A DNA stretch of 64,000 bases from an uncultured Spirochaetota bacterium. Its GTDB lineage: Bacteria; Spirochaetota; Spirochaetia; SZUA-6; Fen-1364. The notes under the pieces were generated by a model. The model made no database searches. It had not been told where the DNA came from and was given only the letters and a program-made list of their open reading frames with translations. Made by a program: the position numbers and the translations under genes. The DNA lies in contig CAWGAA010000002.1 in assembly GCA_963820525.1 (NCBI GenBank), positions 492,568 through 556,567 on the forward strand. The letters are read 5' to 3'. This document shows positions 43,220-52,031 of this stretch, in pieces. Position 1 is the stretch's first letter; each line of letters begins with the position of its first letter.

Positions 43220-43310
43220 CAGGCCCGCTAGCGGCGACCCGCTTGCAGCTTGCCCGGGACGGCGCGGAGCGGCGCCCCGCTTGCCACATCGGTTTTGTCA
43301 CAAGACAGGC

Positions 43311-43367
43311 TGCCGGAGACGGGACTTGAACCCGTACAGCCCTTGCGGGCCGGGGGATTTTAAGTCC
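43311..43367 (-). repeat. att site: 57-bp exact copy of the tRNA-Leu 3' portion
   Basis: TGCCGGAGACGGGACTTGAACCCGTACAGCCCTTGCGGGCCGGGGGATTTTAAGTCC is identical to 51946-52002. Confidence 0.95.
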
Positions 43368-43547
43368 GTTTTCAATTCCCCACGCGCATACCCCTATTTA
43401 CTTATGTATACTATTGATATAGAATTAACGCAGTAGGATAAATCGTGGTATGTCTAAAAAGATGAGAATAGAAAAGGTTCTTCTCAGAAATCATCTCATT
43501 TTTCCAGGTATTAAGAGGTAGAGAATCAAGCAATAAGGGCGAGAAAT

Positions 43548-45674
43548 ATGATGAAACTCAAGAGGTTTCAAGTAACCGGCTTCCGATCAGTTAGCGATAG
43601 CGGCCCAATCGAGACCGATGACGTGACGGCGCTTATCGGAACGAATGAAGCGGGCAAAACCAACATTCTTCTGCCGCTCTGGAAATTAAGTCCTGCAAAG
43701 GAAGGCGAGATCGTGCCTACCGCGGACTACCCGAGAAAACTCTACAACATTCTTAGAAACCAAAAGCCGAAACCTGTGTTCATAAAAGCCGTATTCGAGG
43801 CTGATGACGCGGTCGCACAAGAGCTTTCGGCCAAGACTGGGATGCCAAAAGACGCCATGAGCGAGATAGAGGTTTCCCGCCGTTTCGATACTGAGTACGA
43901 AGTGGATTTTCCGAACGCCAATCCGCTCCGATCGATCAACACAGAAAGGGCCGCAACGATCATTCAGGGCGGAGAGAGGGAAATCGCTGCCATGGCAGCG
44001 GTCGAGGGTGAGAGCGATCTCAAGACGCTCATCGTGACCTCCCTTCGCACTGCGAAGGAGTCTTTTGGCAACAAGACTGAGGTCAACGCGGCCGATCTGG
44101 ACAGTGCTCTTGCCGTTATGGGGGGCGTGAAGATCGACGCCGCTCCAGCAACAAGCACTATTGCGCCTAGATTTCGCCAAGTGCAAGAGCAGATCGGCGA
44201 ATTGCGAAAAGGAATTTCTCGGCCTCACCCGCGAGAAGTCGATGCTGCTGTGAAGATCGTTCTAAAGAACATGCCCAAGTTCGTATATTACTCAACGTAC
44301 GGAAACCTGGATTCCGAAATCTATCTTCCCCATGTGATCGCAAACCTCAAGCGGTCTGACTTGGGCTTAAAGGAACAAGCCAAGGCAAGGACACTTAAAG
44401 TGCTTTTCGAGTTCGTGAAACTCCAACCGGAGGAGATCCTTGAATTGGGCCAAGATTTCAAGGTTACGAACCGTCAGCCCACGGAAGCCGAGATAGCAGC
44501 GATCGCCGAAAAAAAGAAACAAAGGAGCATCCTACTTCAATCCGCCTCAACTCTCCTAACTACTCAGTTTCGAGAATGGTGGAAGCAGGGGGAATACAGA
44601 TTCAGGTTCGAAGCGGATGGTGACCACTTCCGGATCTGGGTCTCGGATGATAAGCGGCCGGAGGAGATTGAACTCGAGGGCCGCAGTACAGGGCTTCAGT
44701 GGTTCCTGAGTTTCTACCTCGTCTTTCTGGTTGAAAGGGCGGATGCCCATGAGCAGGCCATCCTCTTGTTGGATGAACCAGGACTGTCCCTACATCCACT
44801 CGCACAACGCGATCTTTCGCAATTCTTCAATGGGCTCGCGAGCGACAACCAACTCATATACACGTGCCACTCGCCATTCTTGGTCGATGCTGACCGCCTG
44901 GATCGGGCGCGAAAGGTGTATGTTGGCAACGACGGCACTAGCAAGGTCACTCCTGATCTGAGAGCATCTGACGATCCGCCAGGGCAACGGGGTGCTGCAT
45001 ACGCAGTTCACGCTGCACTAGGGCTGAGTGTAGCCGAGAGTTTACTTCTTGGATGCGAGCCCGTTGTAGTGGAAGGTCAATCAGATCAGCACTACCTCAC
45101 TGCAATCAAGAACCTTCTCATAGCCGCAGGCCGGTTAAAGCCCGGGCGAGAGCTAGTATTTCCGCCTGCGGGGGGTGTCAAGGGAGTAAAGGCGGTTGTG
45201 AGTATTCTCGGAGGGCGAGACGAAGAGCTGCCCGTTGCTCTATTTGATAGCGATGAACAGGGCCATGCTACGGCGCAAGCGCTTCGAATAGGTCTCTACA
45301 CTGCCTGTCCAGAACTGGTGTTGGAAATGAAGGACTATGCGGGGTTCGAACATGCTGAGGTGGAGGACTTGATCCCACCCGAGGTGATAGCTCGGCAGCT
45401 TGATCGTTGGCAGCGAGGCGCGGAAAAGCCATTTTCTGAGACGGTGAGACAAGGGGAACCCATTGTTGCTCAAATTGAGGCGTGGGCGAAGAACAACCGT
45501 GTCACCCTTGAAGTCCCAGGTTGGAAGGTCGAGCTCTCAATTCGGGTCAAGCGGCAGATGCTATCTGACGGGCCAGCGGCCATTAAGGCTGAAGTTGCGG
45601 ATAAATGGGTGAAGTTATTCGAGACGTTTCGGGATTCTCGGGCAACTGCCCGGGAGCGACAGGCGGGAGAGTGA
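43548..45674 (+). CDS. OLD-like ABC-ATPase + TOPRIM nuclease
   Basis: FRSV, Walker A GTNEAGKT, signature RSTGLQW, Walker B LLLDEPGLSLHP, H-loop TCHSPF; TOPRIM VVEGQSD and LFDSD. Confidence 0.85.
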   Translation: MMKLKRFQVTGFRSVSDSGPIETDDVTALIGTNEAGKTNILLPLWKLSPAKEGEIVPTADYPRKLYNILRNQKPKPVFIKAVFEADDAVAQELSAKTGMPKDAMSEIEVSRRFDTEYEVDFPNANPLRSINTERAATIIQGGEREIAAMAAVEGESDLKTLIVTSLRTAKESFGNKTEVNAADLDSALAVMGGVKIDAAPATSTIAPRFRQVQEQIGELRKGISRPHPREVDAAVKIVLKNMPKFVYYSTYGNLDSEIYLPHVIANLKRSDLGLKEQAKARTLKVLFEFVKLQPEEILELGQDFKVTNRQPTEAEIAAIAEKKKQRSILLQSASTLLTTQFREWWKQGEYRFRFEADGDHFRIWVSDDKRPEEIELEGRSTGLQWFLSFYLVFLVERADAHEQAILLLDEPGLSLHPLAQRDLSQFFNGLASDNQLIYTCHSPFLVDADRLDRARKVYVGNDGTSKVTPDLRASDDPPGQRGAAYAVHAALGLSVAESLLLGCEPVVVEGQSDQHYLTAIKNLLIAAGRLKPGRELVFPPAGGVKGVKAVVSILGGRDEELPVALFDSDEQGHATAQALRIGLYTACPELVLEMKDYAGFEHAEVEDLIPPEVIARQLDRWQRGAEKPFSETVRQGEPIVAQIEAWAKNNRVTLEVPGWKVELSIRVKRQMLSDGPAAIKAEVADKWVKLFETFRDSRATARERQAGE

Positions 45675-45699
45675 CCGCCCTTAGAATAGGAGCAAGTCT

Positions 45700-45990
45700 A
45701 TGCCAACTTCGGTGAGGAACGTAGCAGGAACCGCAGATCTTTCCTGCAAATGCGGTTCGTGGATCAAGCATTGGGAGAGAGGATCTGGCAAGAGCGCTCT
45801 TGGATGTGGAGTTGTCGGATGTACCGGTCCTGCTGAAGTTGGCGCGCATGTCACGAAGGTGGGATCTCAAGACAGGGGCAGGTACATAGTGCCGATGTGC
45901 ACAACCCACAATTTCTACACTTCTATGGACTTATCGATCAAGGACAGCGTGCCACTCATTTCGGTCAATTGGCAGAATACTTGCGCGTGA
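45700..45990 (+). CDS. 96-aa Cys/His-rich protein, possibly HNH/His-Me-finger-like
   Basis: RBS AGGAG; CKC..W..HW, CGVVGC, GAHV, IVPMCTTHN. Confidence 0.75.
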   Translation: MPTSVRNVAGTADLSCKCGSWIKHWERGSGKSALGCGVVGCTGPAEVGAHVTKVGSQDRGRYIVPMCTTHNFYTSMDLSIKDSVPLISVNWQNTCA

Positions 45991-46308
45991 GGATCCTGTG
46001 GCGGGAATCGCACTCGCCACCTCACAGAGATTGAGACGCACTTTCGCCAACACCTGCGCGGTTTCCCGCCTCAGCGATCTCCTCAAGGGGTAATCGCCCG
46101 CCGAAGGCCTCCGATAGCACGCCTGCCACCTGAACCGCCCCGGCCTCGGCATGAGCACTGCCAGGGGAAGGCCTGCTCCATCATGAAGGAGGCGGACCGT
46201 GCGGTTCATCAATTCGCCGCCCATGCCTGAGCTTCCGCCCGATTGAGCTGCATGAGCAGCCGTGGCCGGGGAGCGTGCCCGCCATCCCGGATGGCCACCA
46301 GGAGCCAA

Positions 46309-46881
46309 GGGCTTTATAAAGGTGAACTACGAGCAACCGAAAAGCATTTAGCGAAAGGTGCGCTAATGTATTTCGTTCGCCTTCAGATGGCACATCTCAC
46401 TGAAGGAATGAAGGTTCTTCAACAGCTTGAAACTGTTCCCAGTTTTAAAAGAGTCTTTTCTTCCTGTCGCTCATCTGCGCAAGAAGCATATAAGCGTTTA
46501 ATACCTTTCACTCAACCAGGACCAGAAAAAACGTGGTTCGATAATAATGTCGCTACTACGCGTAGTAACTTGACTTTTCACTATCATGAATCAGGAAAAT
46601 GGATAAACTGGGCATTAGCAGATAGGGCTTCCAGAGCAGTGGCAGAGCGATCATCAATAACATACGGTGATCACGGACATCTCTGGCGTTTCCATATTGC
46701 AGACAATATTCTTGATAGTATTATGTGTCGTAAAATCTGGAAAATACCCAAATCATCTGATGTACAGAAAGAAGCAGATATAGTAATCAGCAAAATCTAT
46801 AATATCTATCGCAACTTTATCAACTTTGCATTAGTATTTATGTTAGAATATTTGAAGCAGACTATTGTAGCCTTGAAATAA
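46309..46881 (+). CDS. 5'-truncated cassette gene, HEPN-like (R-x5-H)
   Basis: AT-rich part of ORF 46243-46881; RSNLTFHY motif in a helical protein; followed by an attC-like site. The 5' boundary is approximate, set by the GC shift. Confidence 0.55.
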   Translation, partial: GLYKGELRATEKHLAKGALMYFVRLQMAHLTEGMKVLQQLETVPSFKRVFSSCRSSAQEAYKRLIPFTQPGPEKTWFDNNVATTRSNLTFHYHESGKWINWALADRASRAVAERSSITYGDHGHLWRFHIADNILDSIMCRKIWKIPKSSDVQKEADIVISKIYNIYRNFINFALVFMLEYLKQTIVALK

Positions 46882-46888
46882 TCTTGGC

Positions 46889-47003
46889 GTCTAGCATGCT
46901 GTTGGAGTGACAGAATAGGCTGTCGCCGTGACTTATAGTTACATGAGTTATGACCTTTTGTACTTAGATGATTCGGGGCGGCAACTCAACAGCGTCGTTG
47001 CAC
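46889..47003 (+). repeat. attC-like site 1
   Basis: R'' GTCTAGC, L'' GCTGTTGGAGT, L' GCAACTCAACAGC, R' GTTGCAC; arms complementary with an extra G. Confidence 0.8.
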
Positions 47004-47053
47004 GCATTTAGACAAGGTGATGTAATACTCCAGTATCATGCGGGAGGTTATGA

Positions 47054-47953
47054 ATGAACAATAGATTCGATGAAGTAAAAGAACATCTCAGGAAACTTTC
47101 AATAATCAAAGAAGCACTGCAAGCTCTTATCCATTTCAACGAAGAGGCAATAAGTTCTTTGTCGTGGCAGAATCGGTTCCTGGGTAATAGTTTGATAAGC
47201 ACATCCTTCGCGATCGATCTATATGGCTCTCTTGTTGAACCAAAAGTGAATGAGATGTCGGAAACTGACTTCAGAGGGATGATGAATCCACTATCGAACA
47301 TGGTCCGGTTTGGAACTACGTTCATCACGCTCCATAGAACAAAAGACGTAAAGAGCTACTTGCAGACATTTGAGGCAACTGCAAGCGGTGGCTCAGCAGT
47401 TTTCTCAGCATCAGTGGCAGATAGCACTGTCAATTTCATTGGATTTACACACCCCCAAGAACCGGAGAGAGCTAGAATTCAAGGTCTGCTTGAAACATAC
47501 TTCAGCCAGCTGAAACCAGAAGAAGACATTAGGTATATTGAAGAAAGGCTTCCGAAGATTCTCCCAAACGTTGCTGAAGACTTCAAGCACTTCCTTGCCA
47601 ATTACTACGCGTCAAAGCAGAATGAACTCAAGTATCAGGAACTGATTGCATTCAGAACCATCTTTTTTATGAAACTAGTCGAGGAATTTGCGAAATTGCA
47701 TGGATGTCCAGATTCTGTATCACGGAAAGAGAAGATTACGTTTTTTGCATTCAAATCTTCGAAAACCACCGACCCCAATGCAGAGAAAATAGCCGAGGCC
47801 GCATTCTCTTTATGGAAAACGCTATCTACTCAAGATAGCTCGGCTTTAAGCGTAAAGATGGGAAACGTCACCGCCAGTTATATCGATTTGCTATTTCACA
47901 ATGTTCTTATCGTGGCAGCTACGCTCCTAAGGCAAAATGAGAACTATTGGTAA
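47054..47953 (+). CDS. Cassette-encoded hypothetical protein (299 aa)
   Basis: RBS GGAGG; AT-rich ORF exactly filling the space between attC-like sites 1 and 2. Confidence 0.8.
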   Translation: MNNRFDEVKEHLRKLSIIKEALQALIHFNEEAISSLSWQNRFLGNSLISTSFAIDLYGSLVEPKVNEMSETDFRGMMNPLSNMVRFGTTFITLHRTKDVKSYLQTFEATASGGSAVFSASVADSTVNFIGFTHPQEPERARIQGLLETYFSQLKPEEDIRYIEERLPKILPNVAEDFKHFLANYYASKQNELKYQELIAFRTIFFMKLVEEFAKLHGCPDSVSRKEKITFFAFKSSKTTDPNAEKIAEAAFSLWKTLSTQDSSALSVKMGNVTASYIDLLFHNVLIVAATLLRQNENYW

Positions 47954-47968
47954 TATGAACACAAATGC

Positions 47969-48064
47969 GTGTAACATGCGATTGGAGTTGTTCGCCAAGT
48001 CTACGCGTGTTGAATCATTTACACATAGATGATTCGGGGCGGCAACTCATCAGCTTCGTTAGGT
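47969..48064 (+). repeat. attC-like site 2
   Basis: R'' GTGTAAC ... R' GTTAGGT; shares TAGATGATTCGGGGCGGCAACTCA with site 1. Confidence 0.85.
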
Positions 48065-48077
48065 GGTCATAGATTCA

Positions 48078-49085
48078 ATGACATTCGCCCAGCTGATAAA
48101 CCGTATCCGCACTGAGACCAGATACAAGTCCTGTTTCGTTAGTGATTCCTCTTGCTCAACAAGAATAGTTAGGTCGCATTCCATTCAGAATTCTCGGATA
48201 CTTAGGCGTATTTCCTTGAACGGCATGGTCTTAACTATTCAAGCATCAGATCGGATACTCGGCTTTTCTTCCGTTGGCCGCAAGACCGCATCGACCTTTT
48301 CGGGATTCTGCTCGTTTCACGACGATAAGATTTTCAAACTGATAGAGACCGACGATTTCTCTCCTATTGATGCCCACTTCGTACGGCACGCTTACAGGGC
48401 ACTCGCTCTTGAATACAACAAAAAAACTTCAATCCTCAGAATGTACACTAAAATTCTTGAGTTGATGGAAACAAAACAATGGCAGAGATACCTTCGTGAC
48501 TGCACAGATATAAAACCTTCGCGCGCAAGTCCCGCCGAAACTTACAGAGATGTCGTTTCATACATTACTGGATCTCAGATTGAACTCGACAATATGAATA
48601 GGTTCCGAGCGCTGTTCGATGTTTTCTTTGAGACCTCCCACAACGACTTCTTGTCTTCCTTCTCAGTATCCTTTCCCTCTGAGTATCCCATCGCTGCCAC
48701 ATCGTCGATAACGATTGAGCATGACTTTCGAGGTAACCCAGTAAACGTTTTCCCTAAATCGGACATCTGCGATGAATCGAAACCGCTCTATCTAACTATT
48801 TTTCCACAAAACGGGCGTACACATGTTCTCCTCTCTCACTATGAAAGGGACCGCGACACCTACCGACCTTTAAGAAATGATCTGAAGAGTATGCGCATTA
48901 GAGATCTGAAGGTTGCAGTGACAAATTTGATTGCAAATCACATTGAGAACTTCTATGTCTCACCGGTTTATTGGAAGAGACTGGACGAACAAACAAAAGT
49001 CCATTTTCTCGAGGTTTTTCGGCAAACGCTTTTTTTCGCTGGGAGCGACTTGGCTCAACTTAAAGATATCAATATCTTCGTCTGA
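48078..49085 (+). CDS. Cassette-encoded protein with Zn/HNH-like N-terminus
   Basis: C-x6-C, SHSIQ, ASTFSGFCSFHD motifs; lies between attC-like sites 2 and 3. Confidence 0.7.
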   Translation: MTFAQLINRIRTETRYKSCFVSDSSCSTRIVRSHSIQNSRILRRISLNGMVLTIQASDRILGFSSVGRKTASTFSGFCSFHDDKIFKLIETDDFSPIDAHFVRHAYRALALEYNKKTSILRMYTKILELMETKQWQRYLRDCTDIKPSRASPAETYRDVVSYITGSQIELDNMNRFRALFDVFFETSHNDFLSSFSVSFPSEYPIAATSSITIEHDFRGNPVNVFPKSDICDESKPLYLTIFPQNGRTHVLLSHYERDRDTYRPLRNDLKSMRIRDLKVAVTNLIANHIENFYVSPVYWKRLDEQTKVHFLEVFRQTLFFAGSDLAQLKDINIFV

Positions 49086-49087
49086 CC

Positions 49088-49114
49088 GTCTAGCATGCTG
49101 TTGGAGTTGACCGC
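49088..49114 (+). repeat. attC-like site 3, left arm only
   Basis: GTCTAGCATGCTGTTGGAGTTGACCGC is near-identical to the site 1 left arm; no matching right arm found. Confidence 0.7.
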
Positions 49115-49386
49115 TTAAGCTACCTGTCTTTAGGCCGCCCTTGACCAGTCGGGCTCGGAGCTAAAGTTTCAATGAGTTTCGATTTGCATGGAATGCTCTG
49201 ATTGAGTTGTTTAGAAGACAGATATAGAAGGTGTATCAATCTGGAGTTCCCCCGATTTCGTGGACACCCTGAATTGCACCTGCGTCTCGGTTTCGGGGGG
49301 GTATCCAAACACCACCTGCCTTCCGAAAACGCAACCACGGCCCTCTACGCGCAAGGCTTTTTCCTCACTCTGGCTTGGATCGTCAA

Positions 49387-50256
49387 TCATGCCGTCTTCC
49401 GCTCCTCGAGCTCCTCATATTCGGTCGGTGTGAGGTAGCCGAGGTACGAGTGAAGCCGCTTGCGATTATAGAAGATCTCCACGTATTCGAATATTGCTCT
49501 CCTGGCCTCCTCTCTGCTTCGGTAGATCTTGTCCCGAATCAACTCTGCTCTCAAGGTCTTGAAAAACGTCTCCGCGCACGCGTTGTCCCAACAGTCGCCC
49601 TTACGGCTCATGCTTTGAATGAATCCGTGCCCTTTGGCAAACTTTTCAAACTGACCGCTGGTATACTGCACACCGCGATCGGAATGAAACAACAGTCCCC
49701 GCGGCGGGCGGCGACGAATCGCGGCCATGACTACCGCCGTCAGCACCAGCTCGGCACTCAGCTCGCAGCTCAGCGACCAGCCCGCCACTCGACGTGAGTA
49801 CAGATCCAGTACGATGCATAAATACATCCACCCTTCGGCTGTCGCAACGTAGGTTATGTCGGACACCCACACGCGATTCGCCGCGGAGGCTTCGAAGTTC
49901 CTGTTCACTATGTTTTCGGCCACTTCCTGGCCGTCTTTCGAGTGCGTGGTCACTACAAACCGCCTCTTCGGCTGCGGCCCAAGGGCATTCTCTCTCATGA
50001 TTCGGGCAACTCGGTTCTTCCCCACATGCCGCCCACGCCTCAGCAGTTCTTCCCGCATGCGCGGGCTTCCGTAGCTGTGACGCACCTCGCCCTGGATCTT
50101 CCGGATCTGCTCGATCAGCTCCTTCTCCTCGAGTGCTCGTGCACTCTCTTTACCGTCGAGCCAGGCATAGTACCCACTGCGCGCTACTCCCAATACTTCC
50201 GCCATCTTCTCCACGCCGTGGGTTCCCCGCTGTTTACTCATGATCTGGTACTTCAT
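49387..50256 (-). CDS. IS3 transposase OrfB (DDE)
   Basis: YGSPR, WVSDITY, FHSDRGVQY, DNACAETFF. Confidence 0.95.
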   Translation of the reverse strand: MKYQIMSKQRGTHGVEKMAEVLGVARSGYYAWLDGKESARALEEKELIEQIRKIQGEVRHSYGSPRMREELLRRGRHVGKNRVARIMRENALGPQPKRRFVVTTHSKDGQEVAENIVNRNFEASAANRVWVSDITYVATAEGWMYLCIVLDLYSRRVAGWSLSCELSAELVLTAVVMAAIRRRPPRGLLFHSDRGVQYTSGQFEKFAKGHGFIQSMSRKGDCWDNACAETFFKTLRAELIRDKIYRSREEARRAIFEYVEIFYNRKRLHSYLGYLTPTEYEELEERKTA

Positions 50257-50543
50257 CTCGGGGGTCTGGAGAAGATGGCTGTTGCTTTTCTTAGGATGTC
50301 CCGTTCCTCACGCAACTCCTTGTTCTCTTTGCGCAAGGCGGCCAATTCCTCGTCACGGGACCTGCCGTTGCCTGGGAAAGCTCGTGTCCCGTCCTCACTG
50401 AATTGCTTCCTCCAGCGGTAGATCTGTCCGCTGCCGATTCCCAGATCCCGTTCAATCTCATGTCCCGGCTTTGTCCCTGACTCCAGGAGCCGGATGGCAT
50501 CGAGCTTGAACTCTTTGGTGTATTTCTTCCTCGTGTCTGCCAT
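50253..50543 (-). CDS. IS3 OrfA (HTH)
   Basis: KYTKEFKLDAI, YRWRKQ, EERDILRKA; ATGA overlap with orfB. Confidence 0.95.
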   Translation of the reverse strand: MADTRKKYTKEFKLDAIRLLESGTKPGHEIERDLGIGSGQIYRWRKQFSEDGTRAFPGNGRSRDEELAALRKENKELREERDILRKATAIFSRPPR

Positions 50544-50813
50544 TGCCTTTCCTTACCCCTCTAAAATACTGCTTAACCATGTGTCTATGAAATCGGGGTA
50601 GGTCCAATCTCTACCTTGGCAGCTGAAGATCAAGAGATATTAAAGACAAATAGTGACTTTTATGTCGTGTTCTCTCTGCTATCTTTGGCTACGGTCGCAT
50701 CCTCAGCATATGCGATGTCTACATGGAACGCAACCTTTCAATTCTTCGGCTTGCATTCTAGCCCTTTCTTCCACTAAACTCAACAATTATCAGAAAGCAA
50801 GGAGGAAACGTTT

Positions 50814-51803
50814 ATGTCTAAAGGCGTGATTGACAGACCTATTCTTGAAACCCCCATCGCGATCATCGACTTCGAGACAACGGGGCTTGCACCTGGGCCA
50901 GACCGCGTCGTGGAAGTCTCCGTGGTCCGTGCTGAACCTGGAAAGGAGCCTGTTCTTGTTCTCGATACGCTAATCAATCCTGATCGCCCTATGGCAGCCA
51001 CGGAAATCCATGGAATTACAGATCGTGATGTTGTTGACGCTCCCAGGTTTTTCGAGATAGGCGGCGACTTTATTAGGGCGATCTCTGGCTGTGTTGTTGC
51101 TTCCTATAATGTCTATTTCGATATTGGCTTTCTTACCTATGAGCTTCGTAAAATTAGAGTTGCTTGCGTGCCGCCCCATGTTTGTCTTATGTATTTAAGG
51201 CCACTACTTGAAATGGGAAAACGCTGCTCCCTATTTACAGCTTGCTGTGAGTCAGGGATCCCGCTTCCTCATGCTCACCAATCCGCCGCTGACGCATTCG
51301 CGTCAGCACAACTTTGGAAAATATATCTGAGTGCCATGGAAGAGCATGGGATGCAGAAGTTCAAGGATCTTTCCCAAAAAAAACAATACAAATTTCTTAA
51401 TAGTCTTGAAGCGGATCCGCTATCACCGCCAACCGAAGCTGAAATGCCCCATCTGGCCAACGTAAAATCACGTTCTGTGAAGATGCAACAAGAGTATCAT
51501 AGAGGCGGAGCTCAGCCGCCCACACAAACAGTTGACAGGCATGATGTTATCCACCGTTACTGGAGTGAGCTCACCACAGTCCTCTCAGATTTAGAACTTA
51601 CTCGTGATGAAGCCAATGGACTCGCCAAGCTGAGGAATCAACTGAAGTTGACACAAGAAGAAATCAAAGGAATGCATGCTCGCGTTTTTGCGGATCTTCT
51701 ACTTCTTACGATCGAAGACAGAATCATAAGCGCTGACGAACAAAACCAGATTCAGCGCCTCTATAGGTGCCTCGCGAAGCTCGGATGGGCACCGGGACAG
51801 TAA
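50814..51803 (+). CDS. DEDDh 3'-5' exonuclease with C-terminal TerB-like helical repeats
   Basis: IDFETTG, YNVYFD, HQSAADA; tail repeats SDLELTRDE / EDRIISADE; RBS AGGAGG. Confidence 0.85.
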   Translation: MSKGVIDRPILETPIAIIDFETTGLAPGPDRVVEVSVVRAEPGKEPVLVLDTLINPDRPMAATEIHGITDRDVVDAPRFFEIGGDFIRAISGCVVASYNVYFDIGFLTYELRKIRVACVPPHVCLMYLRPLLEMGKRCSLFTACCESGIPLPHAHQSAADAFASAQLWKIYLSAMEEHGMQKFKDLSQKKQYKFLNSLEADPLSPPTEAEMPHLANVKSRSVKMQQEYHRGGAQPPTQTVDRHDVIHRYWSELTTVLSDLELTRDEANGLAKLRNQLKLTQEEIKGMHARVFADLLLLTIEDRIISADEQNQIQRLYRCLAKLGWAPGQ

Positions 51804-51945
51804 AAGCCATAGTTATCTCCGTACGTGCATCCCAGTCGTCAAAGTAGGCTTGAGAGATTCACTGTCGATCGATTGACCCTATCGTTGCACTAAATCTGGC
51901 GTTTATGTGATGCGGAGGAGCGACTTTATATTATAAAGAATTGTA

Positions 51946-52031
51946 TGCCGGAGACGGGACTTGAACCCGTACAGCCCTTGCGGGCCGGGGGATTTTAAGT
52001 CCCCTGTGTCTCCCAATTCCACCACTCCGGC
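51946..52031 (-). tRNA. tRNA-Leu (anticodon TAA), 86 nt, CCA not encoded
   Basis: Acceptor stem GCCGGAG/CTCCGGC, D-loop GG, anticodon arm GGGGA-CTTAAAA-TCCCC, long variable arm, GGTTCAAGTCC. Confidence 0.96.

Follow-up and report, generated by a model that had tools for sequence, protein, structure and literature searches.

An integron array fragment, probably from the family of a resident chromosomal integron, stranded in a tRNA-Leu island of an apparently uncultivated spirochaete

Integron integrases (IntI) fold the bottom strand of an attC site into a hairpin, with paired R and L boxes and two bulged bases, and recombine it at G|TT. [quoted passage not shown] Stranded arrays are an already known kind of element, of which the locus described here is a clean further example. 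CALINs were described in 2016, as was the fact that they occur alongside integrons and near insertion sequence (IS) elements, and that study places rearrangement of array parts and insertion at secondary sites among their origins (Cury et al. 2016, PMC4889954). Integron cassettes have also been presented as stores of anti-phage defense genes (bioRxiv 10.1101/2024.07.02.601686 and 10.1101/2024.07.02.601719).

The locus lies in a 64,000-nucleotide stretch of DNA (the window; coordinates are window positions unless a contig is named) on a 718-kb contig, C2, of what appears to be an uncultivated spirochaete. With a probability of roughly 80%, positions ~46291 to 49133 are a CALIN, a 2.8-kb stranded piece of an integron cassette array, and it is just as probable that the fragment descends from the attC family of the same lineage's sedentary chromosomal integron. 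It comprises the 3' part of cassette 1, the whole of cassette 2, and cassette 3 cut within its attC, with two full attC-type sites and a third of which only the left 46 positions remain, each directly 3' of a + strand open reading frame (ORF). The features of the fragment and its surroundings are:

43311..43367, - strand: distal boundary of the island (distal att site), a direct repeat of 57 bp that is 100% identical to 3' tRNA-Leu sequence (51946-52002)
43548..45674, + strand: OLD-family ATPase-nuclease-like gene, 708 aa (Pfam AAA_15, 6e-21; AAA_21)
46291..46881, + strand: cassette 1 remnant gene, 5'-truncated; its family comprises helical proteins of ~225 aa that carry an Rx5H motif
46889..47003, + strand: attC site 1, full length, degraded (covariance model 71.9 bits, E 2.5e-21)
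46998..48058, + strand: cassette 2, complete, 1061 bp, with boundaries at the G|TT of sites 1 and 2
47969..48064, + strand: attC site 2, full (covariance model 62.7 bits, E 2.7e-18)
48059..49133, + strand: cassette 3, cut within its attC; ORF 48078 (or GTG 48063) to 49085, 335-340 aa
49088..49133, + strand: left half of attC site 3 (matched by nhmmer over model positions 3-46 of 117 with a genome-wide E of 1.8e-6)
49242..50606, - strand: IS3-family insertion sequence (Pfam rve, HTH_21, HTH_Tnp_1)
50814..51803, + strand: DEDDh exonuclease gene (PADLOC PDC-S48, 6.8e-58; Pfam RNase_T, 1.3e-18)
51946..52031, - strand: tRNA-Leu(TAA), the integration target of the island (ARAGORN; Rfam tRNA, 56.2 bits)

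All site calling rests on a family covariance model built from 52 nonredundant sites of a big cassette array on contig C1 of the same genome. Across these 52 sites, the stem with its two bulged left-arm columns was paired in 97.8% of 1,040 cells, and 7 of the 20 stem pairs showed compensatory changes, a result matched by 0 of 500 shuffles (slid controls, 29-58%). The geometry of two unpaired bases, which a preliminary description of the window had proposed as attC-like, is real for this family. The bulges share the top-strand arm with the AAC triplet, matching the description in PMC5027507; they are spaced 5 bp apart and the first is a C on the bottom strand, whereas the class 1 and Vibrio attC sites described there have a spacing of 6 bp and a G. 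With both strands of the window searched and filters off, the model returned only the three sites, everything else having an E value of at least 0.83; partial site 3 scored 11.2 bits (E 0.39) in this search of the 64-kb window.

That these are three related elements placed just after stop codons was borne out, their R'' boxes beginning 8, 16, and 3 nt past the stops at 46879-81, 47951-53, and 49083-85. A repeat search gave three copies of the left arm (at 46888, 47968, and 49087; 100, 81, and 100%) and two of the right arm (46957-46999 and 48018-48060; 88%). As had been claimed, the left arm GCTGTTGGAGTTGACCGC is complete in site 3 only (49097-49114); the right arm GCGGCAACTCAACAGC is present in site 1, where the R boxes are R'' GTCTAGC (AGC replacing AAC) and R' GTTGCAC, and its counterpart in site 2 is GCGGCAACTCATCAGC, with canonical R boxes (GTGTAAC ... 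GTTAGGT, fitting RYYYAAC / GTTRRRY). Site 3 has R'' GTCTAGC and the complete left arm and is missing the right arm and R'. With all filters off, no right half of site 3 was found, nor did extra attC remnants turn up before 46889 or beyond 49133, including after in silico excision of the IS, and attC parts had no blastn match in 40 relatives.

A genome-wide search for a parent integron or intI, suggested in the preliminary description, located both. Two integron integrases, both on C1, scored 448.6 and 410.7 bits against the TIGR02249 cut-off of 265 bits, and C1 holds ~184 sites of the same family. Among 190 nhmmer family matches in the genome, 178 fell in C1:683.7-824.4 kb and 6 in the second integron (C1:1954-1967 kb); the remainder comprised the 3 at the window locus, 2 on contig C3 beside an integrase-like gene, and a solo site on the window's own contig (C2:53993-54092). 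The family is accordingly no general repeat unrelated to ORF ends, since 184 of the 190 matches belong to two integrons. The big integron consists of a gene for a 411-aa integrase followed by a ~140-kb array whose 178 sites of ~115 nt all lie on the + strand, 3' of intI, with a median nearest-neighbor identity of 99.1%. AAC was present in 174 of 174 covered sites and R' GTT in 134 of 134; AAC was likewise found in 5 of 5 sites of the second integron. The C3 locus (825.8-831.1 kb), where an integrase-like gene scoring below cut-off is accompanied by two sites, one of them bearing AGC and TTT, looks like a decaying integron. The nearest IntI homologues (55-58%) came from Spirochaetia metagenome-assembled genomes (MAGs), and the best of 29 attC-like matches around such homologues reached 45.2 bits (80 loci; 978,847 bases).

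In its intI, its ~140-kb length, its 178 sites of ~115 nt, and its low GC relative to the host, the C1 parent resembles sedentary chromosomal integrons, whereas the window fragment lacks intI, attI, and Pc. GC content is 42.5% in the fragment, 44.3% in the big array, and 60% in the genome. We class the fragment as a CALIN because an integron integrase is absent from its contig: as noted earlier for the window, no intI is present, and a six-frame search extended this to all of C2, where TIGR02249 had no match and the sole tyrosine recombinase (PF00589) match lies ~520 kb away. A CALIN is defined by two or more attC sites separated by <4 kb and the absence of a nearby intI, which fits the three sites here (C2:539.4-541.7 kb; spacings of 1080 and 1119 nt), and the layout of a complete integron, with intI adjoining the array and an attI, was not found here; sequence upstream of the fragment showed no similarity to the attI region of the big array. 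With the CALINs of PMC4889954, the fragment shares its small size, the unknown function of its cassettes, the presence of complete integrons elsewhere in the genome, and an adjoining IS, all of which are common there. What sets it apart is that it is cut at both ends, at points that are not recombination points, that its sites show measurable degradation when compared with 130-178 sisters, and that it lies within a tRNA-bounded island.

The island is 8.6 kb long, lacks an integrase, and is bracketed by a perfect 57-bp repeat (43311-43367 = 51946-52002) whose proximal copy is the 3' 57 nt of tRNA-Leu(TAA), in agreement with the description of the array as nested in a tRNA island. Its cargo includes the OLD-like gene upstream of the cassettes (PADLOC matches Old, 1.4e-22, AriA, and GajA) and, proximal to the tRNA, the DEDDh gene, whose PDC-S48 match is to a candidate defense family. 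All island genes are on the + strand save the IS transposase genes. The IS3-family element, 108 bp right of truncated attC site 3, is a simple insertion with a 3-bp target duplication, ATC (49239-49241 and 50607-50609), and has three other copies in the genome (98-99.9% identity), one of them within the array of the second integron; IS ends and target duplications were compared over three full copies. The flanks at 45675-46400, 49126-49242, 50607-50830, and 51800-51950 match the rest of the genome only in chance words of 15-17 nt. No empty island site was found among the 40 relatives, all of other genera, which match only the tRNA, the IS, and ~200 nt at the distal end of the island. A 34-kb interval between such matches in one relative (G005) was rejected as an island, its GC being host-like (57-68%) throughout a 37-kb stretch.

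The gene of cassette 1 had been described as 5'-truncated, and its product indeed lacks ~35 N-terminal residues. The start of the array, placed at 46309 in the preliminary description, moves to ~46291, the codon at which BLASTP homology begins (residue 36 of P0015, residue 9 of P0012). The 199 relatives found at an E value of at most 0.001 are mostly ~225 aa long, with residue 1 of the query aligning near their residue 60. The HEPN superfamily comprises helical bundles with a conserved Rx4-6H motif; among 92 sequences of the cassette 1 family, R126 of the Rx5H motif is nearly invariant and H132 is invariant. The AF2 model is all-helical (pLDDT 97.2) and gave VIA-align Z scores of 9.8 to the integron cassette protein 3JRT and of 7.7, 7.5, and 7.3 to 5YEP_B, 1JOG, and 1YLM, values for which, being below about 13, a common helical-bundle arrangement may account; Foldseek gave no significant match for folds of this family, and the best hit of a PDB profile search had an E value of 0.42.

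Cassette 2 encodes a 299-aa protein (47054-47953, preceded by a GGGAGG ribosome-binding site and followed by attC site 2) that has a single homologue (301 aa, 59% identity) in 5.8 billion clusters. The cassette 3 protein has eight homologues of similar length (21-55% identity), falls only into unnamed clusters in the ESM Atlas, and has distant matches (24-33% identity) in 7 of 400 other genomes of the phylum; its AF2 model (pLDDT 80.7) matched nothing in the PDB at an E value of at most 0.001 by Foldseek, and the best VIA-align Z, 4.8, was to a helical hairpin only. No paralogue of any of the cassette genes was found elsewhere in the genome at the DNA or protein level, so that no candidate donor cassette emerged. 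In having an OLD-like nuclease gene on one side and a PDC-S48-like exonuclease gene on the other, and in the possibly HEPN-type Rx5H of the cassette 1 family, the window cassettes resemble those of integrons described as defense-gene stores; they differ in that none of the three proteins has a family match in PADLOC, Pfam, NCBIfam, or PHROGs. A defense role for them is a guess.

The two ends of each cassette had also been held to be mutually complementary. This stood for cassette 2 (9 of 10 informative positions); cassette 3 reached only 7 of 10. When cassette ends of the big array were paired at random, 9/10 was reached in 6.4% of cases and 7/10 in 26%, and chance inverted repeats of 12-13 nt are numerous in the region, so that such complementarity is meaningful only through its exact seat on the R' and R'' boxes.

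The G|TT crossover point is at neither junction of the fragment. The left cut lies inside the cassette 1 gene, with ~35 N-terminal codons and the cassette's own 5' boundary gone, and the right cut lies inside attC site 3, the halved third attC of the preliminary description, at model position 46 of 117. The neighboring IS has an intact target duplication and so is not the cause of the right-end cut. Because neither end is at G|TT, we infer illegitimate or rearrangement-type recombination rather than a clean IntI reaction: the cassette units would originally have been built and moved by IntI in the parent integron, on attC sites of ~115 nt, and the fragment would have reached the island, or been trimmed, through ordinary recombination of that kind. 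Later deletions might, in principle, have erased clean IntI junctions. The earlier suggestion that a different mobile element captured the fragment may describe its arrival.

Were IntI to have acted in trans, excised cassettes could have been placed at a noncanonical island site (through attC x attG or other secondary-site recombination), with deletions then removing 5' sequence from cassette 1 and, from the last attC, its right half. The two intI genes in the genome are intact, the attC family of the window is identical to that of the resident integrons, and the solo site at C2:53993-54092 indicates that off-array events occur; efficient attG insertion has moreover been demonstrated, and proposed as the origin of SALINs and small CALINs, by Loot et al. 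(bioRxiv 10.1101/2022.09.11.507474). Like those insertions, the fragment consists of resident-family cassettes off the array with IntI in trans; unlike them, it is multi-cassette, with truncated ends and junctions off G|TT. The signature of attG insertion, G|TT at both junctions and a complete last attC, was not found at the locus, no hybrid-site remnant was detected upstream with all filters off, and the positions of the junctions, ~35 codons into coding sequence on the left and mid-attC on the right, mean that this route requires two extra deletions, which leaves it unlikely in our view. A far smaller chance attaches to decay in situ, whereby an integron at this locus would have been stripped of its integrase and of most array cassettes: loss of intI is listed as one origin of CALINs (Cury et al. 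2016, PMC4889954), and C3:825.8-831.1 kb resembles an integron decaying in this manner. However, a search of C2 in all frames gave no intI pseudogene, and the nearest tyrosine recombinase is ~520 kb from the locus, which sits inside an 8.6-kb island with perfect 57-bp tRNA repeats and unrelated genes on either side; moreover, the fragment begins upstream with a cut cassette gene, where no similarity to the attI region of the big array was seen.

Dyad repeats after stop codons can also be terminators or REP elements, and the source is a metagenome-type assembly of 4 contigs, which raises the thought of a general intergenic repeat family or of chimeric junctions. Within the reach of the tools used, this is refuted by the genome-wide distribution of the attC family, of which 184 of 190 matches make up two arrays, each immediately following an integron integrase gene and with all sites in a single orientation, and we regard it as scarcely credible. 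The compensatory changes back an attC hairpin with bulged bases, an Rfam search of the region returned nothing but tRNA, and a terminator scan was at chance level (9 found versus 9.0 expected). Short-read contigs of public run X1 bridge both junctions (46142-46437 and 49044-49229) with 0 differences, although, as X1 is possibly the source sample, this is not independent support.

The stranded sites are degraded, their stems being partly broken, with nonstandard pairs marked in the covariance alignment. Site 1 has a 1-nt deletion and a left-arm CCGCC changed to CAGAA; in site 2, three of the six outer pairs of the stem are disrupted, and the nhmmer alignment shows a 20-nt deletion between CTACGCG repeats. 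Bottom-strand minimum free energies are -11.9 (site 1) and -13.2 kcal/mol (site 2), compared with -29.6 to -14.8 (median -21.5) kcal/mol in the big array, where none of 130 full-length sites is as weak. Nearest-neighbor identities are 82.6% (site 1, to its nearest big-array site) and 72.2%, against the array median of 99.1%. Some big-array sites, members of divergent subfamilies, score just 36-60 bits with the family model, so a low score alone does not indicate decay. The AAC-to-AGC change reported earlier for two R'' boxes is present in sites 1 and 3, two of the three window sites, at a triplet otherwise invariant in the big array. In the class 1 system, however, recombination stayed close to the wild-type level when one partner site carried a single change at the second or third position of the triplet (Frumerie et al., PMC2811028), so that AGC by itself proves nothing.

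Outside the array, where attC shape would no longer be maintained, the sites are probably decaying, and from their sequence and predicted folds we judge them poorly recombinable or not recombinable; the two intact genes would accordingly be fixed cargo of the island. If expressed, they would probably be so by read-through, given that all island genes but the IS transposase genes are on the + strand; a promoter scan was at chance level (7 found versus 7.6 expected). Site 2 has canonical R boxes, and the genome carries two intact intI genes in trans, observations that speak against immobility.

AGC occurs in 3 of 6 family sites outside both complete integrons (two in the window, one on C3) and in none of the 179 covered sites within those integrons, and the change converts the quasi-palindrome ACATGC into the perfect palindrome GCATGC. 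A speculative and rather doubtful reading is domestication: given IntI in trans, persistence off the array would be limited to cassettes with a disabled attC, AAC to AGC would be a recurrent, structure-driven change, and the intact ORFs would be selected as parts of a defense island. The palindrome-perfecting step would then be what template switching within the hairpin is expected to produce, a suggestion to be held equally tentatively. If domestication were true, the OLD-like nuclease, the cassette genes, and the PDC-S48-like exonuclease would form a composite defense island.

General knowledge of integrons is unchanged by the window fragment. As a probable stranded array piece, it offers a well-resolved natural case of cassettes leaving an array and becoming fixed genome content, and having parent array and fragment in one genome allows a site-by-site measure of decay relative to 130-178 sisters. 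The genome also holds a very large integron, ~180 cassettes in ~140 kb, which represents a big pool of unexplored genes, and the three rare cassette protein families are candidates for phage-defense tests.

Between about positions 46290 and 49133 of the window, GC content is 39-46 %, against about 60 % genome-wide, and members of one repeat family lie 3-16 nt 3' of each of three co-oriented ORFs:

46243/46366-46881, + strand, ORF of cassette 1 (ORF call)
46889-47003, + strand, attC site 1, full length
47054-47953, + strand, ORF of cassette 2 (ORF call)
47969-48064, + strand, attC site 2, full length
48063/48078-49085, + strand, ORF of cassette 3 (ORF call)
49088-49133, + strand, attC site 3, left part only
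49242-50606, IS3-family element, 108 bp right of site 3

The attC arms quoted in the preliminary description were found in the window sequence, and GTT at 46997-46999 and 48058-48060 bounds a 1061-bp unit. Contigs from public freshwater-sediment runs cover the left junction (46142-46437), site 2 (47954-48242), and the right junction (49044-49229), all with 0 differences, and the left IS end is bridged by a contig from a further run (49158-49425); as far as can be told the junctions are no assembly artefact, the best-matching run being possibly the source sample, so that contig agreement is not independent support.

The family was characterized from the big array, a ~140-kb attC array following intI on contig C1. 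The 101 sites taken from it gave 53 representatives (<93 % identity), of which 52 were aligned and one, spanning a locus boundary, was left out. A hairpin of R box, 6 bp, bulged base, 5 bp, bulged base, and 5 bp was paired in 97.8 % of 1,040 alignment cells, with compensatory changes in 7 of its 20 pairs (e.g., TT/AA to CA/TG, G-C to C-G). None of 500 shuffles reached the observed values, and sliding the partner by 1-3 columns as a control reduced pairing to 29-58 %; the proposed hairpin with two unpaired bases is therefore borne out at the family level. A covariance model built from this alignment, scanned against both strands of the window with filters off, scored 71.9 bits at site 1 and 62.7 bits at site 2, with a weak partial match at site 3 and noise only (E at least 0.83) in the rest of the 64 kb. 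The two integron regions (180 kb) yielded 192 matches at E <= 0.01, a count that takes in a small number of echoes on the reverse strand and of sites that a locus end divides, with a top score of 133.4 bits.

A six-frame, whole-genome search for integron integrases (TIGR02249, cut-off 265 bits) and a whole-genome nhmmer scan with the attC family (190 matches) gave the following:

C1:682092-683030, intI over the cut-off, 410.7 bits
C1, big array, all on the + strand, 178 nhmmer matches
C1:1954228-1955157, intI over the cut-off, 448.6 bits
C1, second integron, 6 nhmmer matches
C2, window locus, 3 nhmmer matches
C2:53993-54092, solo site, 1 nhmmer match
C3, beside an integrase-like gene with a weaker, split TIGR02249 match, 2 nhmmer matches

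The search found no integron integrase on C2, the contig of the window, in agreement with the earlier statement that no intI is present. Forward copies of a 17-nt right-arm motif numbered 89 genome-wide and reverse copies 1 (reversed-pattern control, 1 and 1), nearly all within C1:683.8-823.6 kb. As 184 of the 190 nhmmer matches fall in the two integrons, the repeat is integron-specific and no general intergenic repeat unrelated to ORF ends.

The larger integron (C1:682092-824376) is a very large sedentary chromosomal integron whose ~140-kb array has 178 family sites, a GC content of 44 % in a 60 % genome, and a median distance of 692 nt between consecutive full-length sites; its intI, divergent from the array, encodes a 411-aa protein extended by ~90 aa at the N terminus. 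The second complete integron (C1:1954228-1967487) has an intI of 323 aa and about 6-7 sites of the same family. At C3:825829-831145, the integrase-like gene, below the TIGR02249 cut-off, matches positions 3-178 and 238-312, with the middle segment missing. Two family sites come after it, and of these the second has AGC in R'' and TTT replacing GTT; this locus looks like an integron in decay. The solo attC on the window's contig (- strand, outside the window, 36 bits) retains AAC and GTT, has partly broken stems, and sits in a 41-44 % GC patch as a SALIN-type stranded cassette.

The closest IntI homologues, from Spirochaetia and Spirochaetaceae MAGs, share 55-58 % identity at best. The model gave 29 matches at E <= 0.001 (best, 45.2 bits) in 978,847 bases of 80 loci around them, and blastn of the window attC parts against 40 relatives of other genera gave no match. 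Judged from these sequences, the attC family is the lineage's own. The window cassettes have a GC content of 42.5 %, versus 44.3 % in the big array. There, the first and last 10 informative cassette bases are complementary at 8 or more positions in 89 of 128 adjacent pairs, a level reached by 863 of 5,000 random cassette-end pairings. The mutual complementarity claimed for the window cassettes holds for cassette 2 (9/10) and is weak for cassette 3, whose 7/10 is also reached by 26 % of random pairings.

Both ends of the fragment are cut, and G|TT, the crossover point, is at neither. Most members of the cassette 1 protein family (199 representative clusters at E <= 0.001) are about 225 aa long, and the residue encoded at 46366 lines up with about position 60 of these. 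When the frame is extended, BLASTP homology begins at the codon at 46291, corresponding to residue 36 in a member of 225 aa and to residue 9 in the closest relative (197 aa). Because the alignment starts internally and the N-terminally conserved LMMAFND block is absent from the cassette 1 protein, the cassette, by family comparison, lacks about 35 codons and its own 5' boundary, which bears out the 5' truncation proposed in the preliminary description. The sequence upstream (61 % GC) is unrelated and resembles nothing else in the genome, the attI region of the big array included. Site 3, described earlier as halved, ends at model position 46 of 117, and neither switching the filters off nor deleting the IS in silico brought up a right arm. 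The IS, with inverted ends, is flanked by a duplicated 3-bp target (ATC), and two sister copies likewise have duplications (AAC, GCT). It thus went in later, as a simple insertion into the region upstream of the next gene, and did not cause the cut. A sister copy, 99.85 % identical, lies inside the second integron's array (C1:1965736-1967100); the IS does visit arrays, and nothing ties it to this fragment's event.

The sites themselves are decaying. The R'' triplet is AAC in 174/174 covered big-array sites (4 not covered) and 5/5 covered second-integron sites (1 of 6 not covered), whereas window sites 1 and 3 have AGC, in keeping with the change described earlier for two R'' boxes. Other changes in site 1 are the loss of 1 nt and, in the left arm, CCGCC to CAGAA; in site 2, 3 of 6 outer stem pairs are broken and 20 nt are deleted between two CTACGCG repeats. 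Predicted bottom-strand folding is -11.9 kcal/mol for site 1 and -13.2 kcal/mol for site 2; among 130 full-length big-array sites (median -21.5, range -29.6 to -14.8 kcal/mol), none is as weak. Shuffle z-scores for the strands of these two sites are only -0.65 to -1.75. Nearest-neighbor identity is 82.6 % (site 1) and 72.2 % (site 2), versus a big-array median of 99.1 %, with only 3/130 array sites below 85 %. We put the probability that the window sites are immobile at about 60-65 %, a judgement only, since divergent subfamilies inside the big array score 36-60 bits with the same model and the class 1 system tolerates a lone change at the second position of one partner site (PMC2811028). AGC occurs in 3/6 family sites outside complete integrons versus 0/179 inside. 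At each of the three (46889-46900, 49088-49099, and C3:~831036), the A-to-G change turns ACATGC into the palindrome GCATGC, a sequence pattern compatible with recurrent quasi-palindrome template-switch mutation. The changes in sites 1 and 3 may not be independent, because 21/21 bases of their left arms are common.

As described earlier, the fragment is nested inside a tRNA island: a perfect 57-bp repeat of the tRNA-Leu(TAA) 3' part (43311-43367 and 51946-52002) bounds 8.6 kb containing, in order, an OLD-family-like gene, a 96-aa Cys/His-rich ORF, a GC-rich spacer of ~300 bp, the cassette fragment, the IS, and a PDC-S48-like exonuclease gene, the genes all on the + strand except those of the IS transposase. 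No tyrosine recombinase was found in the island, the sole PF00589 match on C2 being about 520 kb off. The OLD-family-like ATPase-nuclease gene (708 aa) and the ORF 26 nt downstream (43548-45990; CxC...HW...CxxxxC...H...C..H, no family match) are possibly a two-gene defense module. The exonuclease (50814-51803; 329 aa, DEDDh, C-terminal extension) matches the PADLOC candidate defense system PDC-S48 (6.8e-58), and its gene adjoins the tRNA, the place expected for an island integrase. The spacer (45991-46290, 61 % GC) has several nested inverted repeats (e.g., 46131-46145/46194-46208 and 46138-46150/46259-46271); it resembles no other part of the genome and matches nothing in Rfam. At the island's distal end, about 200 nt (43310-43508; the tRNA repeat plus ~140 AT-rich nt) have 72-81 % matches in eight or more relatives belonging to other genera; the interval between such matches in one of them (G005) was rejected as an island, being ordinary host-GC chromosome. 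The island repeat is unchanged over 57 nt and the attC sites are at least 17 % from their nearest sisters; this contrast, inflated by homogenization inside the array, suggests that site decay predates the insertion of the island at its present position. The fragment may have traveled with the island.

Among 5.8 billion clusters, the cassette 2 protein has 1 homologue (59 % identity, 301 aa). The cassette 3 protein has 8 (21-55 % identity); the block STFSGFCxxHD is invariant in this family, and a fold search with the AF2 model (pLDDT 80.7) gave no match. Relatives of the cassette 1 protein (P0012-P0161) form an unnamed helical family of ~225 aa (199 clusters at 50 % identity) with conserved blocks LMMAFND, YFxRxxxxHLxE, and RxxxxFHY and no Pfam family; an attC-like match lies directly 3' of a relative's gene in 1/67 metagenome loci (L117, 41.2 bits). 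The family conserves an Rx5H motif, with H132 invariant and R126 nearly so. Its AF2 model is a helical bundle (pLDDT 97.2); the best structural neighbor of this model, 3JRT (Z 9.8), is a cassette protein from a Vibrio integron that its authors relate to the KNTase_C clan (PMC3548836). Next, at Z 7.3-7.7, come the HEPN-type 5YEP_B, 1JOG, and 1YLM; such values are common for helical bundles, so that a HEPN-like assignment is a lead only. In the window copy the first helix and roughly half of the next are missing, so its protein is, on this model, probably dead.

[quoted passage not shown] (2016, PMC4889954), who find about half of CALINs in replicons that encode IntI and IS elements in a fourth of complete integrons, and who name rearrangement or secondary-site insertion as likely origins. 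The attG insertion route for cassettes set out by Loot et al. (bioRxiv 10.1101/2022.09.11.507474) would fit the junctions here only with extra deletions. Slightly new are the side-by-side quantification of a stranded fragment against its parent array and the AAC-to-AGC change, which recurs exclusively outside complete integrons and makes a GCATGC palindrome perfect.
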